In this document: in pieces, positions 4,118-25,510 of the stretch
How the letters are laid out: every line of letters starts with the position of its first letter
How positions within the stretch are numbered: the first letter of the stretch is position 1
Source of the DNA: a virus
Reading direction: 5' to 3' (one strand)
Length of the DNA stretch: 64,000 bases
IMG/VR virus record: IMGVR_UViG_3300010352_001575
Coordinates: 94,206-158,205 of that record
Notes under the pieces: model-generated
The model's database searches: none
Told to the model about the DNA's origin: nothing
The model's input: only the letters and a program-made list of their open reading frames with translations
Program-made: the position numbers and the translations under genes

Positions 4118-5465
4118 CGCTAAGAATTTAGTAATAGACGCTGCCATCAACGAGGTGAGAGCTTGGAGATCCAAGACCGATGTTTCCAATGAAAAGTTTA
4201 CTTCTCCTGAGGATATAAACTTAGCATTATTGGATTTTTCTGGAGGTGCTGTTAAGTACCTCGCAAATTTTCACCTGAATAATTATGTTAAAAACAGCAA
4301 AGAGTTATCCGAGGACACCGGGATAGATAATATAAACAATCTAGACGCCAAGGCTAGAAAACAATTAACTACGGTATCGGTCTATTCATCTAGCATAAAC
4401 CGGCTGAAACATTACTTTCTATACCTTGAGGGCTTGCTGCGAGATTCTCTGTATGAAAAAAGGTCTTTGGAGTTTAACCCGTTAGCTCCTCTAGACCTGT
4501 CCGTTAACCAGCTAAACCGAAAGGACAAATATAAGGGCGCAGAAAGGTTTATTGCATACTATGCAAAGAATGAGGGGCTCATAGCTCCGGTCGCAGATTT
4601 AGCTAACAAGCTATCATTAGACTTCAGCCAGTCAGAGGACGCGGCTACCGATGCTAACGTAGGTTCATACATTTCTCAATTTGAAGAAAAGGTAAGCAAC
4701 GTAATAGCGCAGCTAGAGGAATCCGGAGGAGTGTCTCCTGTTGCTCCGGTAGATTTAACCTGGTATCGATATGTGTGCGCAGGAGGCTTATCCGAAGCAA
4801 TTGCTAAGGTCGAATCTGGTGCTAGCATTGAAGATGTTAAGAACCAAATTGCCATAGCCGTAGGCTATCTAGAGGCGTACTTCTATCTACATTTCACGAC
4901 TAAGGCCTACCAGCGCCCGATACCGAGTCTAGCGGACTACATCGCGGCTGCCGCAGAGGCCGTGTTGGCCAACGCCAAAAAGTCTGAGGATTTATCTAAG
5001 AGTATAGTGGCTGTATCTGGAAAAATAGCAAGCAACGCATCTAGGCCGTCGTCAGGAGTATCCGCATACAGTCTTGACAGGCCAATAAACGAAGAGCAAG
5101 CATACGGAGATACCATAGCAGACTTGTCACAAAGTCCGTTAGAATCTTTGGTTAAATCTCAAGAAAAATCTAAAGAAGAAATTTCCGCTAAAATAAACTC
5201 GTCAACTAACAAGATACTGGAGAAGATTAAGGCGTCTGACTCTAACGCGTTCGCTCACATATCGGCGTCTCCAGCTTATGCGGATTATGTTTCGTTTATC
5301 CGTGATGTCTTAAAGCAGAAAGACGACAAAGGTTGGTTTTACGAGGAAGTAGCTAATAAGCTAAAGGACGCGTTGACCAAGCTGTTTCCGGAAGAAGCTA
5401 CAGAGTTTGACAATTTCGAAAGTATAAAAAGAGCAATAGACTACGAGTTAGGAGACATTCTGTGA
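4080..5465 (+). CDS. Hypothetical protein with a sigma region 3.2-like segment
   Basis: 461-aa ORF containing YSLDRPINEEQAYGDTIADLSQSPLE, similar to the sigma finger SLD.PI....D.LGD.I.D...SPE. Confidence 0.5.
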   Translation: MPEAETNTPQDGSAKNLVIDAAINEVRAWRSKTDVSNEKFTSPEDINLALLDFSGGAVKYLANFHLNNYVKNSKELSEDTGIDNINNLDAKARKQLTTVSVYSSSINRLKHYFLYLEGLLRDSLYEKRSLEFNPLAPLDLSVNQLNRKDKYKGAERFIAYYAKNEGLIAPVADLANKLSLDFSQSEDAATDANVGSYISQFEEKVSNVIAQLEESGGVSPVAPVDLTWYRYVCAGGLSEAIAKVESGASIEDVKNQIAIAVGYLEAYFYLHFTTKAYQRPIPSLADYIAAAAEAVLANAKKSEDLSKSIVAVSGKIASNASRPSSGVSAYSLDRPINEEQAYGDTIADLSQSPLESLVKSQEKSKEEISAKINSSTNKILEKIKASDSNAFAHISASPAYADYVSFIRDVLKQKDDKGWFYEEVANKLKDALTKLFPEEATEFDNFESIKRAIDYELGDIL

Positions 5466-6199
5466 CAGACGATATCGCCGAGGCAACCAACGCTGCGCCT
5501 CCGCATGCGGCAGAGCCTGCTACGCCGGCCGTAAACTACAATTTCAAGTCCATAACCGACTGTGTAGAGCAGCTCAAGTTAGAGGATCAGATACTGGCAG
5601 CATACGGGGATGATTACAACTATAAAAAAGTCATAAACCTGCTCACCAATATATCGGTCATTCCTAAGAAATATGTTCCCAAAAACGTGGCATCGGTCAC
5701 CCGGCTGTGCAACGCTCTTAGGAAAAGCAAGAACCCTACAGAGGCCAAGCTAGGGCTGCCCAAAAACATAGACCTAGTAGACTCGGGCTTCGAGCCATTG
5801 CTGGACGGTCTTGACGACATTTTTGACAAAGACAGCGGAGACGCCGGCGCCGCTCATCTAAATATAATCAGAGGTTGTCTAGTCCAGGTTATGAAACTAG
5901 AGAAGCACGCTCAGACACATCCAGATGAAGCACAACATAACGCGCTCATCAAATATATTGATCAAATCCGGCTGCTGATAGACACAGTGAAGAAAGCAGT
6001 AGACGAGAGAGAAAAGGCCAGAGACGAGATACGGCAGTTGGCAATAGAAGAATCAGACGCGCTAATGGGTGTTGTCCGGGATGTGATATATCAAATAGCG
6101 CCGCTCAAGGCTCCAGATTTTTTCAGGCTGCTAAAGGCCAAGCTAGGGGATAAGGCTTTACAGCCCGGCGTAGTTAAACAGGAGAATGCCAGTGAATAA
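5462..6199 (+). CDS. Hypothetical protein, candidate small terminase subunit
   Basis: 245-aa helical ORF just upstream of terL; positional inference only. Confidence 0.4.
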   Translation: MTDDIAEATNAAPPHAAEPATPAVNYNFKSITDCVEQLKLEDQILAAYGDDYNYKKVINLLTNISVIPKKYVPKNVASVTRLCNALRKSKNPTEAKLGLPKNIDLVDSGFEPLLDGLDDIFDKDSGDAGAAHLNIIRGCLVQVMKLEKHAQTHPDEAQHNALIKYIDQIRLLIDTVKKAVDEREKARDEIRQLAIEESDALMGVVRDVIYQIAPLKAPDFFRLLKAKLGDKALQPGVVKQENASE

Positions 6200-6455
6200 G
6201 AAAATTTTGCTAAAGCTAGCCATAAACCCAGGCGGGTTTAACTCTACTGATACAGACGGAGAGGTAAGAAGCACCGACCTACCCGTAGCAACCATAGTCC
6301 CGCCCACGGTAAAAAAAGAAAAGGACCAGCTAGACCTATACCCTCGGCCCCCGGCCGTAGTTGCTATGGACGAAGCTAAAGTAATAGACCAGGCCATAGA
6401 CTCTGGTAGCGTTGGTATGCCTGCGGCAGGATCTGACCCGTGCCATCAGCCTTAA
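6186..6455 (+). CDS. Hypothetical protein
   Basis: 89-aa ORF whose ends overlap both neighbours. Confidence 0.5.
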   Translation: MPVNKKILLKLAINPGGFNSTDTDGEVRSTDLPVATIVPPTVKKEKDQLDLYPRPPAVVAMDEAKVIDQAIDSGSVGMPAAGSDPCHQP

Positions 6456-9418
6456 AGCTGCTAAGACCAAGAAGAGAAATGGTGGGCACTACATATCGTA
6501 GAGCCTTCTACGACCAGTGCGTTAAATACATAGATAGCAAGTCCGGAGACAGCCTTCAAGAAATCTTGTGGGTAGAGGAACCGGTAGGCTGGAAAGAGTT
6601 TATAGAATCCCCGCAGCACCTCAATTTATTCTCGTTAACACCTAGACAAGAACTGTTGTTTGACTTCCTAGTCGGCGACGATCCTAAGCAGATGTTTTTC
6701 AACGGAAATAACGAGGCCATTTTGGCCTGGGCGAAGGGGTCGTTACTGGGTGGTACTGAGTTTATTACAGCAGATGGTATACGAGACACACTAGAGAACC
6801 TAGCCAATCGTCCTGGTAATTTGTCTGTATATACTAAGGATGACAATGGGCGCGTGGCTATTGCTCAAGCATCTCAAGTATTTAAGAAGCCTAATAAAGA
6901 AAACTGTTTTAGAGTGACTACTTCCTTTGGACACATTTCTGAATGTTCTGAGGACCATCAGTTTTTCACCACGAACGGATGGAAAAAGCTTAAAGAGTTA
7001 TGCGTAGGAGATTGGGTTTGCTCCGCGCAGCAAATACCTTTAAAGGCCCAGTATTCAGAATCTCCAGAACTGTGTAGGTGGATAGGATACATACTTGGAG
7101 ACGGGTGTATATCAGAAGGTCACCGAGCTCAGTTTTTTGTTTCTATACCGGAAATAGAGAAGGATTATTGCAATATAGTTAAGAGTTTTGGTGGGCATAC
7201 TAGGGTGCGACAGCACAACACCCCTAAGTCTAAAGTTGTAGATATCAAGTTCACCGGAAAGAGAAACGGTAATATTCTGGTTCAGCACGCCAAGAGATTG
7301 GGAGTTTACGGGCATACTGCGGAGAGCAAAAGAATACCTATAGAAATAATGTATTCCAGCGCTAAGTCCAGAATAGCCTTGATTGAGGCGTTGTACGCTA
7401 CGGACGGATCTATTTGCAGGCATAACGCGAAAGATCGTGCGTCTTGGGAAATTACTTATTTAGCCAAAAACAGAAAATTTATAGAAGATTTAGATTTTAT
7501 GTTGCGGTGTTTTGGTATTGTCGGTAAAATCAGAAGAGTACATACAGCATACAATGGAGAAAAGCGGTGGTACTGGAAGCACATCATAACTGACATTTCC
7601 GCAAATAAAAAATTTGCAGAAACATTCATCATTACAGGAAAACAGCATAAAGTTGAGGAAATGATTGAAGACACTCGGTTAGCTCGTGTGCAAGGGAGGA
7701 CGTGCCCTGAGACTCTAACAGAATTAGCAAAAAAAGAAATATACGCATTAGTTGGACGGCGCGGGTCGCAATTACGCGGAAGGCTTAGCAGCGGTCAGAT
7801 GCTCAACTACACCACAGCATGCACGCTTAAAAGCGTAGACAAGCTAGCCAATGAAGATTTGTTGTGGGAGCAAATAAAAAGCATAGATGCGTTAGGCATG
7901 CATCCAGTATATACACTGACTGTACCTGGGACGGCCAATTACTTATGCTCTGGCCTATTTCATCACAATTCAGGCAAAGACACACTAGCGTCAATTTTCT
8001 TGCTGTACTGTGTATACGTGCTTCTATGTGTGGAGTGCCCTCAGAGGATGTTTGGCGTGATGGAAGGCTCTAACATCGACTGCATTAACGTGGCTCCTTC
8101 AGGAGAAAACGCTCACAAAGTTTTCTTCGAATCGCTCAAGCAGCGGGCGCTGAGGTGGCGTTGGCTTAAGGATAAGTTTCGGGTGGAGTTGTCTGGAGAA
8201 TACTTAAACAAGGTTGCCGGAGAAAAGAAAAGCTCTAAAGATACTGTCACGATTACACAAGATGGTATTCTGTTTCCTAAGCAGATTCGATTGTTATCCA
8301 GAAACTCCAACCACGAGAGTGCAGAAGGATACAACACTCTAGTCGGTATCTTGGACGAATCAGACGCGTTTTCAAATAAGAAGGGCGTATGCAACGCCGA
8401 GACGGTGTATGACACGTTGAAGAGCTCTAAGAAATCCCGATTTGGCAGCATTGGCAAAATGCTATCGCTGAGCTTCCCTAGGGCAGAAGACGGGTTCATC
8501 ATCAAGCAGCTTAACGAGAACCTTAAGAATCTTCACGTGTTTACAGACACCGCCGCTACCTGGGAAATACGCCCAAGAAGTTCGTACTCCGCCAAGACTT
8601 TTGTTTTTGAGGGTAGAGAAATACCAGTAGACTTCCAAGACGAATTTGAAAAGAACCCCACCAAAGCAAAGATGTACTACCTAGCCATTCCGCCTAAGGT
8701 ACAGCAGGGCTTCTTTGAGTATCCTGACAAGCTTCGCCTGTGTGCGGATCCCGGGCGTAGTTCGTTAATAACCTGGAGTGAGTACTATGAGGGAGATAAG
8801 GTCTGCGCGCGCATAGACAGCATGCGGTCTGGCAGCTCTTCCTTGTCTTACGTTCTTACTTTGGACTTGGGCCGAAACCGGGACAAGGCAGCTCTCTCGA
8901 TGTCGCACGGGGAGTATCTCAATCCTAAGGCCCCCAATGAGTGCACCGTTGTGCAGGATTTGGTTATGAGCTGGATACCTAACAAGGCTAAAAAACTGAC
9001 AGTATCGTTCATAAACGTAGAGCAAATCATACGAAAGTTATGCGATAGGTACAATATAACCGGGGTGTGGTTTGACGAATGGCAGGCATATCAGATGGAC
9101 GAGCAGCTGAAGAAAGACCAGATATCTTCGCACACTCACGTGTTGCAGGAGCCGGACTACCAGCGGTTCAAGGAAATGTGCTATGTTCAGCGCGTGCAGC
9201 TACTGCCGTACGAGCCTATGCTTAAAGAGATGGAGCGACTGGTGCAGCTAAGAAACCGAGTTGACCACCCTGAAGGCGGAGAAAAGGACTTAGCAGACAC
9301 GATGGTCAGTGCGGTAAAGGTCGTGCTTAACCAAACGCGGTTTACTGGAAACTCTGATTTTCCTGATGTAGAACTCATAACACCCAACCTCCAGACCAAT
9401 ATGGACCCCTGGAGTTAG
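6440..9418 (+). CDS. terL: Terminase large subunit, intein-containing
   Basis: Walker A WAKG|SGKDT after intein removal, Walker B GILDESD, RNase H-like nuclease motifs LTLDLGRNRDKAA, WFDEWQ and DHPEGGEKDLAD. Confidence 0.93.
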   Translation: MPSALKLLRPRREMVGTTYRRAFYDQCVKYIDSKSGDSLQEILWVEEPVGWKEFIESPQHLNLFSLTPRQELLFDFLVGDDPKQMFFNGNNEAILAWAKGSLLGGTEFITADGIRDTLENLANRPGNLSVYTKDDNGRVAIAQASQVFKKPNKENCFRVTTSFGHISECSEDHQFFTTNGWKKLKELCVGDWVCSAQQIPLKAQYSESPELCRWIGYILGDGCISEGHRAQFFVSIPEIEKDYCNIVKSFGGHTRVRQHNTPKSKVVDIKFTGKRNGNILVQHAKRLGVYGHTAESKRIPIEIMYSSAKSRIALIEALYATDGSICRHNAKDRASWEITYLAKNRKFIEDLDFMLRCFGIVGKIRRVHTAYNGEKRWYWKHIITDISANKKFAETFIITGKQHKVEEMIEDTRLARVQGRTCPETLTELAKKEIYALVGRRGSQLRGRLSSGQMLNYTTACTLKSVDKLANEDLLWEQIKSIDALGMHPVYTLTVPGTANYLCSGLFHHNSGKDTLASIFLLYCVYVLLCVECPQRMFGVMEGSNIDCINVAPSGENAHKVFFESLKQRALRWRWLKDKFRVELSGEYLNKVAGEKKSSKDTVTITQDGILFPKQIRLLSRNSNHESAEGYNTLVGILDESDAFSNKKGVCNAETVYDTLKSSKKSRFGSIGKMLSLSFPRAEDGFIIKQLNENLKNLHVFTDTAATWEIRPRSSYSAKTFVFEGREIPVDFQDEFEKNPTKAKMYYLAIPPKVQQGFFEYPDKLRLCADPGRSSLITWSEYYEGDKVCARIDSMRSGSSSLSYVLTLDLGRNRDKAALSMSHGEYLNPKAPNECTVVQDLVMSWIPNKAKKLTVSFINVEQIIRKLCDRYNITGVWFDEWQAYQMDEQLKKDQISSHTHVLQEPDYQRFKEMCYVQRVQLLPYEPMLKEMERLVQLRNRVDHPEGGEKDLADTMVSAVKVVLNQTRFTGNSDFPDVELITPNLQTNMDPWS
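6740..7969 (+). mobile_element. 410-aa intein with double-motif LAGLIDADG endonuclease in the terL Walker A
   Basis: Starts SLLGGTEF (Ser1); block B CSEDHQFFT; LAGLIDADG motifs WIGYILGDG and IEALYATDG; ends LFHHN followed by Ser+1; excision restores AKGSGKD. Confidence 0.93.
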
Positions 9419-19915: not shown

Positions 19916-22900
19916 ATGATGTTAGGTAATGCGAAGTCTTTCGCGGAAGCGTGGGCCCCTCAATACGAGGAAACCACAAACAGAAGGGGAGATGTGTGCG
20001 AGCGCGGTGCTCGTGCTCTTCTCAAGAAGGAAGCAAAAAAGGCAGAAATGCTGAAACGCATAGCCAGCGGCGAGGAAGCTCCTCTCCGTGGTGAGATGCA
20101 GGAGCTTCGTTTCCAGAACATTCTGAAAACGCCAGGCGCCGGTTTCTCCAGGCTGTCGTTCGCGTTACAGGGCCCGTTAAAGGACCGCTGTGACTACGTC
20201 TCCATCGGCCGCAAGCTGCTGCTGACTGACGTACTGCCGCAGGGCGAGATTTATACGAGTCTCGTAACTCACTCAAATGCTGGAAAATCCTTAGAGCCAC
20301 AGGTACCGGAAACGGTGACAATCTTGTGGATTGGACAATCAGCAGGGCGATATCGCCCTCAGAGACTAAATTTTGCATAGGTAACTATGCAAATACGGTG
20401 AGCTCTTCAAAAGAAGAGAAGGTATAGTCCGACCTGCATAGAAATATGCAGACTTTGGAAGAAACTCCAAAGCGCCTAGAGAAGTAGACTAGGTAGTAAC
20501 ACAGTGTCCGGCGTATGACCTTGATAAATGGCTTGTCACTTCACAGAGCAATCTGTGTTGAAAACCGTGGCTGCTGCTGGAAACTCCTTAGAGCTCTAAC
20601 TGCCAAAGGAGGCGAAAATGTTAGAGATTGGACAATCAGCACGGAAGTACCGTTGGAAGTTTAGATGGGAGTATACTACAATGACTCCTGAGCTGGCCTA
20701 CCTAATTGGTGTTTATTTAGGAGACGGCTCCATAGTTGCAAACAAACAATCGTTATGGTTTGTTTTGCAGGCTATAGACCAAGAGTTTGTAGAATATACT
20801 CGGTCGCTATGCCAAAAGCTAGTAAACGAAACCGTCCCAGAAGTACACAGGTATGTATACTCTAGTAAGAATTCTAGCCCTGTATACAAATTTGTATTTT
20901 CTAGTGGAGATTTCGCGAGCTGGATGATGAACATAACGGCGTGTAAAACAAGAATACCGCGAGAGATTGACAGAACGCCAGGTAATCCAATTCTAAAAGA
21001 ATTCTTATCTGGATTTCTAGATAGTGATGGATTCATCTGTAACAATAGACGCAAATCCGGAAGGGATAATTGGAATGTAGGATTTGGCGGAATATATGCG
21101 TGGATCCACGAAGTGGCGGATATTCTAAGAAATGAAAAATGTGTAGTAAATGGACCGTGGTTAATTAAGCGAAAGAAGTACTACTATGATTATAGGATAA
21201 CACCTAAAAGTTACGCCCAGCACGGCGTAGACTTTAAAATACATAGAAAACAAGAAAAGCTTAAACAACTACGAGAAACGAAGCTCAACGGAAATCCCCC
21301 AGAGACTGTATGCCACGCCCCCACGAAGGGTGAAGAGACAGTCCAACAGTTAGAGAAATCTAATTGAGATAATTGATGCCAGAATTCCCTGAACACTACG
21401 GACGGGGCCAGTTGCAATAAACTGGAAAATTTCGCTATATGCTGGAACATCTTCAAAAGATCTAAGTACTGGAAACAGTGAAAATCTTAGATACACGGAG
21501 ACAATCAGCAGGCAACCCGCAAGGGGCGCCTCAACGACTACACGCGAAACACTGCAAAGTGATGATATAGTCTGATCTGCATAGACATATGCAGTTAACA
21601 ATAATGGCCGTAGCAATCGGTGCCCGGGGTACTCCCCCGATGATGGAAGGAAACTTCCGTCGTATCCTCATCAATACATACTCGATCACAGTTAAATCGA
21701 GCCTGCATTATGAAGAGCTGCCGATCAGGCGCTTCCCAGTATTCGATCGTATGAAAGAACGCGTGGCTATTTCCATGGCGATCAAAGAAGACGATCAGAT
21801 ACTGACCCTGCTGGAAGATGGTCTAACGCAGTCTATTGCCGCGGGTTATGACCAGACCGTGACCAATAGCACAGCCGAGCTCTCGAAAGCCAACATCCTG
21901 TCTATCTATGGAATGCTGCTCTCGAACGGCCTGACTCCGGGCGCTTTTGTAACGCACCCGATGCGCTATGCCAGTGGTATCCTCAGCTTCGGACAAGCAG
22001 ACATTGACCAGGCTTCTCTAAACGTAATTATAGAAACTGGCCAGTTCGGCGTGCTATGAAAATGGCTCAGATACGCGTAAGCGTACTAGATACTTCACTA
22101 TATGCTGGAAACTCCTTAGAGCTCTAACTACCTAGAACGGTAAAAATGTTAGAGATTGGACAATCAGCAGGCAACCCGCAAGGGGCGCCTCAACGACTAC
22201 ACGTGAAGCTCCTAGGTAACTAGGATGAAGATATAGTCTGACCTCGATAGAGATATCGAGAGATAGGCAGAAATGACCTATCCCCGCGATAGCGGTGTAA
22301 CAAAGTGATTTGGTGTTCGCCAGATGCTGTCCACGAGGGTAAACCCCCGCAGGTTCTACCACACGACCACGCCTGAACATATCGGGCCCGGACGGAGCGA
22401 TTCGTCCGTTAACATTCAGTAAATTGCAAGGACACCCTATACTTATATAGAAAAATTTTGTATAATAAATATAGGACAATTTGCAGCCAAGCCTTGAAAG
22501 AGGAAGGTTCAGAGACTATAGACTGAATATCTCAACTGAGATAATGACATAGTCCGAACTATACGGTAACGTATAGAGATTAGCAGAAATGCCTAATCCT
22601 CGAGCAATCGAGTAACAAATTGGATAAGCTGGGTCGTATCCCTGAGTAAGCGTTCGGGGCCTGTGATAGAAATATTGCAGTGAATAACTTGACTGATGCG
22701 GAAAAATCCGAGTATCTTATGCTCCCAGAGTGGAATAACGCATAAGTGCGGAAAATTCGCAGGAGATTAAATCATGGAAAAAAGAGTATTTCGTTTCGGA
22801 AAAATTACACCAAGGCTGGCCTATGTACTAGGCGTATATTTGGGAGACGGATGGGCGTCCAAGCGAGGTGGGTTTGGCTTGTTCAGCATAGACAAAGAGC

Positions 22901-23754
22901 TGACAGACTGCATAAAATGCTACTGTGAAAGCTTTGTCGGTCCTACCCCTGAAGTTAAGCCCAGGCAATACAACAAAGGGTTTAACGGCAAAGGCGCTAA
23001 TGGTTGGGTTTACGAGTTTCACTGTCCGGAGTTTTGTTCCTGGTTGAAGGATATAACCAAGAATAAGGCGATAGTCCCAGACGTGATTCCAGTTACCAAC
23101 TCAGAAATAACCAAGAACCTATGCGAGGGTTTTATAGACGCAGAGGGCTGGGTTAAAAAGTCTACCAAAAAAACTTGTGCATACGGGCATACATACGGGA
23201 TGGGAGTTTGTAATACTAATCTAGATCTGTTAAACGGGGTTGTCTCCCGGCTAGAGCAAGTAGGAGTAAGGCACGGAAAGCTACATACAATAGTTAGAGC
23301 AGACCGGGTTAAGCCAGAATACTTCTACAACTTAGTATTACAGGACGCTGTGAAATCTCGGTTAAACTTGAGAACTCGAAGAAAAGCAGAGCGGCTTAAA
23401 GAGTACGCAAGTTTGAACTTTAAGAAACCTTGGAATAAGGGCATGACCAAAGAAGAAATAGTAGCTAAGATTGGCCATGATTATATGAAAAGAAATGATT
23501 TGATCTCTACAACGACTGAACGTCAAGCACCCTAACGGGTGGTGTTACAGTCTGACCTGCATGGCGATATGCAGTTAACATAAGTAGAACGCAAGAGCGT
23601 TGAGGTAAAAGTGATTGACTGGCCAGTTGACAATCGTTACATCATCTCCGGATGGGAAATGGTTGGCTTCGGTCTGCACAACACTGGTGGTATTTCCGCC
23701 GCGAAGCTGACATGGGGAAGCCTGCAGATGCCTGCTCGCTATCCACTGTCCTAA
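19916..23754 (+). CDS. Major capsid protein in 7 exons: join(19916..20250,20507..20525,21376..21390,21607..22055,22308..22374,22623..22643,23587..23754), 357 aa
   Basis: Exons sum to 1074 nt and read in frame: ...DYVSIGRKLLLTDVLPQGEI-PAYDLD-MPEFP-AVAIGARG...KEDDQILTLL...ETGQFGVL-FGVRQMLSTRV...TTP-DKLGRIP-ERKSVEV...GFGLHNTGGIS..., the motif order of HK97-fold MCPs of large myoviruses. Confidence 0.88.
20251..20506 (+). ncRNA. Group I intron 1 in MCP (256 nt, no ORF)
   Basis: P AATGCTGGAAA, Q CAATCAGCAGG, R TCAGAGACTA, S AAGGTATAGTCC; P1 GAGAT pairs with GTCTC with the terminal U-G; ends in G. Confidence 0.88.
20526..21375 (+). mobile_element. Group I intron 2 in MCP (850 nt) encoding a LAGLIDADG endonuclease
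   Basis: P TGCTGGAAAC, Q CAATCAGCA, R CCAGAGACTG, S AAGAGACAGTCC; the 3' end could be 21375 or 21378 (both in frame), P10 pairing favours 21375. Confidence 0.82.
20618..21367 (+). CDS. Intron-encoded double-motif LAGLIDADG homing endonuclease
   Basis: LAYLIGVYLGDGSI and FLSGFLDSDGFI; the true start may be ATG 20681 (MTPELAY). Confidence 0.9.
   Translation: MLEIGQSARKYRWKFRWEYTTMTPELAYLIGVYLGDGSIVANKQSLWFVLQAIDQEFVEYTRSLCQKLVNETVPEVHRYVYSSKNSSPVYKFVFSSGDFASWMMNITACKTRIPREIDRTPGNPILKEFLSGFLDSDGFICNNRRKSGRDNWNVGFGGIYAWIHEVADILRNEKCVVNGPWLIKRKKYYYDYRITPKSYAQHGVDFKIHRKQEKLKQLRETKLNGNPPETVCHAPTKGEETVQQLEKSN
21391..21606 (+). ncRNA. Group I intron 3 in MCP (216 nt, no ORF)
   Basis: P ATGCTGGAAC, Q CAATCAGCAGG, R TCAACGACTA, S ATGATATAGTCT; P1 CCCT/GGGG; P10 CTACGG pairs with 3' exon CCGTAG; ends in G. 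Confidence 0.9.
22056..22307 (+). ncRNA. Group I intron 4 in MCP (252 nt, no ORF)
   Basis: P ATGCTGGAAA, Q CAATCAGCAGG, R TCAACGACTA, S AAGATATAGTCT; IGS AAAT-GGC pairs with 3' exon ATTT and 5' exon GCT; ends in G. Confidence 0.9.
22375..22622 (+). ncRNA. Group I intron 5 in MCP (248 nt, no ORF)
   Basis: P AAATTGCAAGG, Q CAATTTGCAGCC, R TTCAGAGACTA, S ATGACATAGTCC; IGS TATC-GGGC pairs with 3' exon GATA and 5' exon GCCT; ends in G. Confidence 0.88.
22644..23586 (+). mobile_element. Group I intron 6 in MCP (943 nt) encoding a LAGLIDADG endonuclease; predicted terminal A
   Basis: R TACAACGACTG, S GTTACAGTCTG, P8 CACCC-TAAC-GGGTG; IGS GCGTTC-GGGG pairs 6 bp with 3' exon GAACGC and 4 bp with 5' exon CCCT. 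Confidence 0.82.
22774..23535 (+). CDS. Intron-encoded double-motif LAGLIDADG endonuclease with a C-terminal NUMOD3-like motif
   Basis: LAYVLGVYLGDGWA and LCEGFIDAEGWV; KKPWNKGMTKE near the C terminus; AGGAG RBS. Confidence 0.9.
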   Translation: MEKRVFRFGKITPRLAYVLGVYLGDGWASKRGGFGLFSIDKELTDCIKCYCESFVGPTPEVKPRQYNKGFNGKGANGWVYEFHCPEFCSWLKDITKNKAIVPDVIPVTNSEITKNLCEGFIDAEGWVKKSTKKTCAYGHTYGMGVCNTNLDLLNGVVSRLEQVGVRHGKLHTIVRADRVKPEYFYNLVLQDAVKSRLNLRTRRKAERLKEYASLNFKKPWNKGMTKEEIVAKIGHDYMKRNDLISTTTERQAP

Positions 23755-24300: not shown

Positions 24301-24521
24301 TGAGGCTATCACTAGAAACAGTAGCAGACAAAGTAAAAGCCATCGGCGTTATCTTGGCTTTTATTGTTGGTACCTCCGCGGTCATAGTTAGGTATTACAA
24401 TCTTCCAAAAGACGTAGCTACGCTTACCGCAGAGCAAAAAGTACTGAGGGCCGAAATTGACAAGCTAACTGACCGGTTGGAAACGGTTGAGAGACGCATA
24501 TCTCGCAGGAGAACGCAATGA
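24300..24521 (+). CDS. Small single-pass membrane protein with coiled coil
   Basis: Hydrophobic AIGVILAFIVGTSAVIV followed by a heptad coiled coil. Confidence 0.6.
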   Translation: MRLSLETVADKVKAIGVILAFIVGTSAVIVRYYNLPKDVATLTAEQKVLRAEIDKLTDRLETVERRISRRRTQ

Positions 24522-25510
24522 AGCTACCCATCACCATAGCACTGATGTTCTTGTTTTCAGGACCGGCGTTTAGTAAGGACCTGAGCCAGCAGACCGTAAA
24601 TAGCCAGATCGCAGCAGTACAGAAAGCAATTAAGGAAAAGGGCGCAAAGTGGGTGGCCGGCGAGACCTCGCTGTCTAAGCTGCCCATCGACCAGAAGCGC
24701 CGCCGCGTCGGTATTGGCTTCCAGATGCTGAACGTGCCGCCCCTGAAGCTCTCAAAGACGCGCGTTAGCGTACCGGCCAGCATTGACTGGCGCGCCAAAG
24801 GCGCTGTGTCTAACGTAGCTGACCAGGGCCAGTGCGGCTCCTGCTGGGCTTTTGCTTTAACGGCCGCGCTAGAGTCTTATGTGATGCGCGCGCCGGGCGT
24901 TACCAAGAACGTGGACCTATCTGAGCAGGTGATGGTCTCCTGCAGCGGCATAGGTTCTTGTGACGGCGGAACGCTAGACGGTGACTTCATCCGTAATGTT
25001 GGTATCCCGCCAGAAAAGTTTTACCCATACTCTGCGCAGAACGGTGCTTGTGAAGATGTTAAGGAAGGCTGGCAAACGGCTTCTTTCAAGATCAACACCT
25101 GGGGTTCAGTGCCTAAGTCCCTGAACGCCATAAAAGAAGCCCTGGTACAATATGGACCTCTTCCCACGGCTCTGTGGGTTTACGAAGATCTCATGCACTA
25201 CAAATCAGGTGTGTACTCATACACCACTGGCAAGAAGCTAGGCGGGCACGCCATACTGCTAGTTGGATATGACGACGCAGAGAAATGCTTTATATTAAAG
25301 AACAGCTGGGGCGAGGACTGGGGAGAGAAGGGTTTCTTCAAGGTAGCCTACTCTGAGCTGAACACGGTGGTTACGATGGGTCTTATGACCATTGCGTACA
25401 CGTCTGACCCGAGCCAGAACACTTTCCCGTCAGGACAATTGAAGCTGCCTGAGGTGGACACTTACGGGATTGCAGAGCAATCGCCGATACTTACCGGAAT
25501 GAGGCTATAG
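24518..25510 (+). CDS. Papain-like C1A cysteine peptidase with N-terminal signal peptide
   Basis: QGQCGSCWAF (catalytic Cys), GGHAILLVGY (His), KNSWG (Asn); signal-like MKLPITIALMFLFSGPAFS. Confidence 0.95.
   Translation: MKLPITIALMFLFSGPAFSKDLSQQTVNSQIAAVQKAIKEKGAKWVAGETSLSKLPIDQKRRRVGIGFQMLNVPPLKLSKTRVSVPASIDWRAKGAVSNVADQGQCGSCWAFALTAALESYVMRAPGVTKNVDLSEQVMVSCSGIGSCDGGTLDGDFIRNVGIPPEKFYPYSAQNGACEDVKEGWQTASFKINTWGSVPKSLNAIKEALVQYGPLPTALWVYEDLMHYKSGVYSYTTGKKLGGHAILLVGYDDAEKCFILKNSWGEDWGEKGFFKVAYSELNTVVTMGLMTIAYTSDPSQNTFPSGQLKLPEVDTYGIAEQSPILTGMRL

Follow-up and report, generated by a model that had tools for sequence, protein, structure and literature searches.

Introduction

One of the closest described counterparts of the locus studied here is orf142 of phage Twort, which contains three group I introns and a 23-nt exon that is skipped (Landthaler and Shub 1999, as presented in PMC10136302, PMC3073962 and PMC11878797). 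[quoted passage not shown] However, the introns flanking the Twort exon are highly similar and its skipping was seen by RT-PCR, whereas the introns described here are only 58–59% alike across the short exons. Our locus also differs in having six introns, three micro-exons and two LAGLIDADG genes. A short exon between dissimilar group I introns, as in our case, is found in the 23S rRNA gene of Coxiella burnetii, where a skipped exon of 34 nt separates Cbu.L1917 from Cbu.L1951 (PMC10136302); this is a bacterial rRNA gene with two introns, unlike a phage capsid gene.

A heavy load of group I introns in core genes, including the capsid gene, has been described in other phages: the major capsid protein (MCP) gene of the crAss-like Zeta phage is split by group I introns into five fragments (PMC7886860), and Jug phages contain about 18 introns per genome (PMC12880540). 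These are different phage groups from the virus considered here. The capsid gene of Faustovirus E12 is likewise divided, into 13 exons of 13–527 bp by 12 introns, and most of the junctions are supported by RNA (PMC6247863), but this is a eukaryotic giant virus, with introns of 0.4–3.3 kb and GIY-YIG endonucleases. Comparable behavior of closely spaced mobile insertions is known from the MCM inteins of Haloferax, whose homing is affected by the insertions present in the recipient allele (PMC10643990); in contrast to our introns, these were tested in vivo, and what was seen there was that two inteins homed poorly together into empty alleles, not an overlap of targets. Capsid genes with many introns, and group I introns separated by short exons, are thus already published, and the gene described below is a well-supported further case.

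The Capsid Gene and Its Seven Exons

The window, a stretch of 64,000 nucleotides, is part of a virus record of 177,741 bases with 29 tRNA genes, which are clustered on the minus strand (G000 C1 5206–14101). In the head module around the region of interest, the order is portal, maturation protease and MCP gene. The MCP matched phrog_2522 and, in a profile comparison, gp27 of Bacillus phage G (PDB 6WKK; E = 4e-65), and the model of an MCP homolog (P0001) matched HK97 capsids in Foldseek with an E-value of about 5e-12. Judged by these profile and model matches, the product is an HK97-fold major capsid protein of the phage G gp27 type (PF25209). Phage G gp27 itself belongs to the same protein family and shares the fold, but is a distant relative, one residue shorter directly after the motif encoded by exon 2. 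All group I introns detected in the 178-kb record are confined to the MCP gene. Gene callers reported exons 1 and 4 as fragments and missed the micro-exons entirely, so that phages with such split capsid genes drop out of capsid-based surveys.

Two other reading frames in the window deserve mention. Just 3′ of the capsid gene, at 24518–25510, lies a papain-family C1 cysteine protease gene encoding a hydrophobic N-terminus (Pfam E = 3e-52). At 6440–9418, a 992-aa ORF contains the LAGLIDADG-like motif WIGYILGDG and may represent an intein in a terminase-region gene.

The gene is on the plus strand and consists of seven exons (332, 19, 15, 449, 67, 21 and 168 nt). Exon 1 (19919–20250; an in-frame ATG is also present at 19916) ends in the U of the P1 U·G pair, and is followed by intron 1 (20251–20506, 256 nt), which contains no ORF, has an 8-bp P1 hairpin and ends in G; the same site is filled in L041. 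Micro-exon 2 (20507–20525) encodes residues 111–117, IPAYDLD. Intron 2 (20526–21375, 850 nt) carries an endonuclease ORF (20618–21367) of 249 codons, for which a 228-aa start at 20681 was also called. Micro-exon 3 (21376–21390) encodes residues 118–122, MPEFP, and is followed by intron 3 (21391–21606, 216 nt), which has no ORF, exon 4 (21607–22055), intron 4 (22056–22307, 252 nt), exon 5 (22308–22374) and intron 5 (22375–22622, 248 nt); a similar intron begins at the latter site in L017. Micro-exon 6 (22623–22643) encodes residues 295–301, DKLGRIP. Intron 6 (22644–23586, 943 nt) carries the second endonuclease ORF (22774–23535, 253 aa), and exon 7 (23587–23754) includes the stop codon.

Spliced together, the seven exons gave a stop-free ORF of 356 aa that aligned to intronless homologs without gaps through all three micro-exons, and the peptide spanning exons 5, 6 and 7 was identical to that of intronless homologs. 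A spliced-alignment DP, constrained only by the condition that exons end in T and introns in G or A, returned the identical six introns with each of six intronless reference proteins, with and without a 3′-motif prior. Two relatives display the junctions in their DNA. In L040, exons 1, 2 and 3 are unbroken and identical to ours in amino-acid sequence (100%), and site 3 is filled by another intron, which also encodes an endonuclease; in L069, exons 1–2 and 3–4 are contiguous as predicted, and a homolog of intron 2 is the sole intron. The three micro-exons are thereby established at the DNA level, and the coordinates that an earlier note had assigned to them turned out to be exact by the spliced ORF, the DP with six references, the L040 and L069 junctions and the P1 U·G pairs. 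Other borders for exon 2, with the 5′ site at a second U·G pair or the 3′ site after G20511, which would give a tidier P10, were rejected because the homologs need Ile-Pro-Ala-Tyr and the L069 and L040 DNA displays the junction. From the group I anatomy described below, and because the host gene encodes the capsid protein, we infer that all six introns are spliced.

Anatomy of the Six Introns

Rfam model RF00028 matched introns 3, 4 and 5 at 82–84 bits and intron 1 at 47.8 bits (E = 3e-10), while the ORF-interrupted introns 2 and 6 were recognized through their P3 and P7 halves. Complementary P3 and P7 halves were found by script in all six introns. Together with the Rfam matches, they indicate a group I catalytic core (P3, P4, P6 and P7) whose P7 contains the G-C pair that binds guanosine. 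A P1 helix with a U·G pair is formed at all of the 5′ sites, to which the exon side contributes 3–7 bp (6/6 introns), and for each intron the cognate P1 was the best or equal-best among the six exon ends. The cognate P10 ranked in the top 1–8% of positions for introns 1, 2, 3 and 6; introns 4 and 5 have a P10 with only four weak pairs. The terminal ωG is present in introns 1–5, and intron 6 ends in A under a U·G 5′ site.

The neighboring pairs 1/2, 2/3 and 5/6 are only 58–59% alike, and the P3 strands pair across introns at two to three of five positions. Neighbors similar enough to combine into one chimeric ribozyme, as in Twort, therefore do not flank any of the micro-exons; only introns 3 and 4, which surround the 449-nt exon, are of this kind. 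These two are 74–78% alike, the 5′ P3 strand of intron 3 pairs with the 3′ strand of intron 4 at five of five positions, and P7 is common to both. The segments 21431–21590 and 22094–22256 of introns 3 and 4 include a 45-nt identical core block as well as the compatible P3 and P7. Because the ribosome-binding sites of both endonuclease ORFs (22760–22776 and 20605–20620) lie in or beside ribozyme core helices, folding may limit translation of the two intron ORFs.

With the U·G 5′ site at 22643, only A23586 as the end of intron 6 restores the full protein. Intron ends at nearby Gs with the same 5′ site were rejected, since they introduce stops or frameshifts, and in-frame Gs delete three or six residues, including the near-invariant R303/K304. 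We also rejected an assembly error, as the A is found in four further assemblies (100% identical), though these perhaps derive from shared samples. Since G is the first base of intron 6 as well as of exon 7, moving the two splice sites by one base would leave the mRNA unchanged and provide a terminal G; this is possible, but the 5′ exon would then end in G and the U·G pair would be abandoned. The P7 G-C pair is unchanged in intron 6. A homologous intron at the same site in L074 is 62% identical and has the same tail, but ends in G. A second A-ending intron was found in L075 (8295–8555, at aa 320), with a perfect 7-bp P10. The Coxiella intron Cbu.L1917 also ends in A, as intron 6 does.

The P10 helix runs unbroken beside the U·G pair for 6 bp in intron 6 and 7 bp in the A-ending intron of L075, a length of at least 6 bp that was reached by 3 of 39 introns; the mean for G-ending introns was 1.7 bp. 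The chance of both A-ending introns having a long P10 is about 0.004, a post hoc figure in which bulged P10 helices were left uncounted and the introns are non-independent. For these reasons we would go only so far as to hypothesize that a long P10 compensates for the absent ωG. A terminal A in a presumably essential gene provides a test of how far P10 can replace ωG.

Intron Crowding in the Capsid Family

In the MCP family as a whole, we counted 39 introns at 29 distinct sites, seven of which fall within 45 nt at residues 107–122. The close relatives of the window gene represent different states of occupancy: sites 1, 2 and 3 are filled in the window, only site 2 in L069, and only site 3, by a different intron, in L040. 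Since L040 joins exons 1, 2 and 3 in its DNA and L069 joins exons 1 and 2 as well as 3 and 4, sites 1–3 vary independently. Other micro-exons are formed by other pairs of sites, measuring 18 nt in L018 and 21 nt in L039. Five of the six intron sites in the window lie at the 69th–98th percentile of column conservation. At site 3, two unlike introns compete for one position, and the layout of the one in L040 (133–1082) resembles that of intron 6.

The homolog of intron 2 in L069 has a nucleotide identity of 87.6% overall, and 129 of its first 130 nt are identical. In the exons, 28 of 164 nt (17%) around sites 1–3 are substituted relative to L069, compared to 21 of 406 (5%) elsewhere (Fisher p = 2e-5). 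This excess resembles the diversity peak reported beside mobile introns in yeast mitochondria (PMC5378118). Synonymous differences from L069 are ≈3 times denser at the hot spot (20150–20250, 20507–20525, 21376–21390 and 21607–21636) than in the rest of the gene.

The most fragmented member of the family is L075 (2836–8555; JGI 3300060601, Ga0592795_0000467), in which the same capsid gene contains 13 introns, 11 of them with an Rfam match. Its internal exons of 10, 21, 10, 35, 35, 13, 119, 14, 14, 23, 4 and 420 nt splice to a clean protein, and break the rule of a 15-nt minimum exon that five exons had suggested. On either side of the probable 4-nt exon (7578–7581) lies a group I core of its own, one scoring 63.7 and the other 51.8 bits. 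The definition of this exon is based on the placement of the U·G pair and on the two cores, and protein homology hardly distinguishes it from a single long insertion. Its four bases are probably shared by the predicted upstream P10 and downstream P1. The family constitutes a natural test set for the splice-site fidelity of tandem group I ribozymes across exons of 4–21 nt. For one L075 intron (4791–5723), no U·G 5′ site fits; it needs either a 5′ exon ending in C, which places Asp at an invariant Glu, or a displaced junction at which the intron would end in a base other than G.

That introns come and go independently at crowded sites accounts for the micro-exons, so they need no function. We consider it most probable, at roughly 0.7, that they are by-products of intron crowding, the leftovers of independent landings in one conserved stretch rather than a device. 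Mobile group I introns would enter the HK97-fold capsid gene independently of one another, at numerous positions within its most conserved coding motifs, and wherever two neighboring positions came to be filled, the few codons between them would be left as a micro-exon. The occupancy patterns themselves are observed, and homing is presumably their cause. Each intron would select its own splice sites by its own guide sequence; with the P10 of the upstream intron on the start of the micro-exon and the next P1 on its last four bases, both helices could form. By these computed pairings, the introns would be expected to splice in any order, probably with a 5′-to-3′ bias from transcription. The product that matters would be the full 356-aa capsid protein, and any skipping would be a splicing error by which the phage loses part of its mRNA. 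Endonuclease recognition most likely covers about 17–30 bp within the flanking exons, so that neighboring introns would leave cleavage unblocked but might shorten the homology available for repair.

The Intron Endonucleases

Both intron ORFs scored above the Pfam cut-off for LAGLIDADG_3, and their translations contain the motif pairs YLGDG/FLDSDG and YLGDG/FIDAEG, in which the acidic residues of the catalytic site are present. By sequence, both are predicted to encode intact two-motif LAGLIDADG homing endonucleases. An intronless site 2 is present in the close relative L040; for intron 6, the intronless homologs found were more distant. A centered target would reach the neighboring insertion point only if it were longer than 30 bp for intron 2 or longer than 42 bp for intron 6. 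Characterized monomeric LAGLIDADG enzymes other than I-MG11 read about 17–22 bp. Published target lengths are 14–40 bp for meganucleases, the monomeric enzyme I-MG11 reading 17 bp (PMC13748971); for yeast intron enzymes they are about 20–30 bp (PMC5378118).

The L040 allele, with site 2 empty and site 3 filled, would be a natural substrate for the enzyme of intron 2. Together, the alleles with sites 1, 2 and 3 filled, with site 2 only and with site 3 only could be used to test whether a filled neighbor helps or hinders homing. Unless donor and recipient share the neighboring intron, a filled neighbor would leave just 15–21 nt of exon homology on one side.

Splicing Order, Gating and Exon Skipping

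In the predicted pairings, each micro-exon does serve the intron before it as P10 target and the intron after it as P1 substrate, as previously proposed: nt 6–12 and 16–19 in exon 2, nt 1–6 and 12–15 in exon 3, and nt 1–4 and 18–21 in exon 6. These footprints do not overlap, leaving gaps of 3, 5 and 13 nt, respectively, so that base pairing forces no order of splicing. Predicted P1 formation likewise had no consistent dependence on upstream splicing, and the suggestion of the earlier note that the micro-exons could impose an order found no support here. An obligatory order, imposed by steric exclusion or by a guide masked until the upstream intron is gone and delaying capsid synthesis, would nonetheless find some encouragement in the linkers between P10 and the next P1, which measure just 3 nt in exon 2 and 5 nt in exon 3. 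When a short window is folded, moreover, the 3′ end of intron 1 masks the guide of intron 2, giving a P1 probability of 0.00 before splicing and 0.71 after it, but the masking was gone with 60–90 nt of context (0.32 vs. 0.22; 0.93 vs. 0.71), and exons 3 and 6 gave no trend; the folding-ensemble test of order swung with window size and produced no consistent signal. Intron 2, furthermore, is also present in L069 without introns 1 and 3, and since its first 130 nt differ there at a single base, it does not appear to be tuned to its neighbors. At the L075 4-nt exon, which would be used whole by both helices, a constraint on order is expected, and the case is more convincing there than in the window. 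A steric clash between two folded ribozymes 15–21 nt apart, to which base-pair maps are blind, is possible, and intron 6, lacking the terminal G, may be rate-limiting and impose an order for another reason. For the window micro-exons, we regard an obligatory order as unlikely. The same low weight is given to a broader scheme in which crowding makes adjacent ribozymes share exon bases and relaxes the terminal-G rule: splicing would be ordered, weakly in the window and obligatorily at the L075 4-nt exon, introns with a long P10 could end in A, and the resulting relay would throttle capsid mRNA or gate the alleles open to the endonucleases. Gating in its simpler form, in which occupancy of one site controls homing at the next because the endonuclease target or the repair homology spans the neighboring insertion point, strikes us as doubtful, if less so than a fixed order. 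Targets can reach 40 bp (PMC13748971), and a site for intron 2 that is off-center or longer than 30 bp would cross site 3; L075 has endonuclease-bearing introns flanked by exons of 10–14 nt; and neighboring inteins interfere with each other's homing in vivo, although the enzymes in that study still cut their own sites (PMC10643990). Targets of ≈17–22 bp, on the other hand, fit inside exons 2 and 3 (34 bp) and inside exons 6 and 7, and the three alleles are too few for a test of co-occurrence. The target overlap suggested earlier thus persists as a possibility for intron 2, given a long or off-center site, and is unlikely for intron 6.

Tandem group I introns skip exons either through one chimeric ribozyme or through a distal splice site, and in engineered tandem introns, skipping is suppressed when the P1 and P10 elements are distinct; how natural skipping works was described as not yet analyzed (PMC10136302). 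Candidate routes can be drawn for the window: exon 3 could be lost if intron 2 used the 3′ end of intron 3, exons 2 and 6 through a distal 5′ site after upstream splicing, and exon 4 if introns 3 and 4 formed a chimeric ribozyme. By calculated energy, the guide of intron 2 has a slight preference for the start of exon 4 (−7.1 kcal/mol) over that of exon 3 (−6.2 kcal/mol). Alternative P1 helices can form as well: for intron 2, one of 3 bp at the end of exon 1; for intron 6, one of 3 bp at exon 5 and one of 4 bp at exon 3. The cognate helix has 4 bp in either intron. Because intron 2 favors exon 4 and introns 2 and 6 each have a 3-bp P1 one exon upstream, skipping could be frequent. The exon ends are alike, GAU in exons 1 and 2 and CCU in exons 3, 5 and 6, and there are precedents in the 23-nt exon of Twort, the 34-nt exon of Coxiella (PMC10136302) and the polymerase transcripts of SIOphi (47%; PMC11878797). 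The cross P10 between intron 2 and exon 4 ranks among the best 2% of positions, but one such pairing in 30 off-diagonal tests is about what chance would give. The chimeric route is poor for the micro-exons, given the dissimilarity of the flanking introns and their weak P3 cross-pairing; the best chimera, of introns 3 and 4, would drop exon 4 and shift the frame. The gene is also presumably essential and highly expressed. On balance, we hold appreciable skipping, which would lower capsid output and yield no useful isoform, to be a tentative possibility, below even odds but ahead of a fixed order and of gating. It is compatible with crowding and differs from it in amount only. That skipping of exon 3 or 6 is programmed, so that capsid proteins lacking 5 or 7 aa are made as minor forms and act in assembly or on capsid size, is by contrast highly improbable. 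The frame arithmetic put forward earlier is correct, in that skipping exon 3 gives 351 aa, skipping exon 6 gives 349 aa and skipping exon 2 leads to a stop after 117 aa, and PMC3073962 calls Twort skipping “suggestive of programmed exon skipping”. In the family, however, more sites are in phase 0 than in any other phase, so that in-frame exons are expected by chance, and close relatives lack the intron pairs altogether. Among 120 homologs, the micro-exon residues Y114, D115, D117, E120, K296, G298, R299 and P301 are near-invariant, with 98–100% conservation and 0–2 gaps. Skipping exon 3 would remove E120 (120/120) and F121 (90%), and skipping exon 6 would remove K296, G298, R299 and P301. In the P0001 model, exon 6 forms the start of a long β-strand with a pLDDT near 90, and exons 2 and 3 form a long loop before the spine helix, which we take from the HK97 topology to be the E-loop. 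(In a first model, based on 22 sequences, the loop was of insufficient quality.) Skipped products are thus, from conservation and the model, most likely faulty capsid proteins and unlikely to be useful; exon skipping itself, as suggested earlier, stays plausible, with precedent and candidate pairings, and useful shorter isoforms are not supported, the residues concerned being 90–100% conserved and essentially never gapped.

Further Alleles

Where the N-terminal regions were weak (L011 site 44, L030, L037, L055 and L062), the DP proposed “introns” that had no group I motifs; these were discarded. Degenerate pattern scans of viral contigs for introns at sites 5 and 6 gave one chance match and one intronless exon, and a scan of genome contigs returned nothing. 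Proteins P0148 and P0149, which have a near-identical exon 4, both end in NVIIEIR, suggesting an intron ≈20 nt 5′ of site 4 in conspecific alleles. In protein P0157, the C-terminal part of the capsid protein is fused in frame to an endonuclease. This enzyme is 54% like the one encoded by intron 6, and the fusion lies near the position of that intron.
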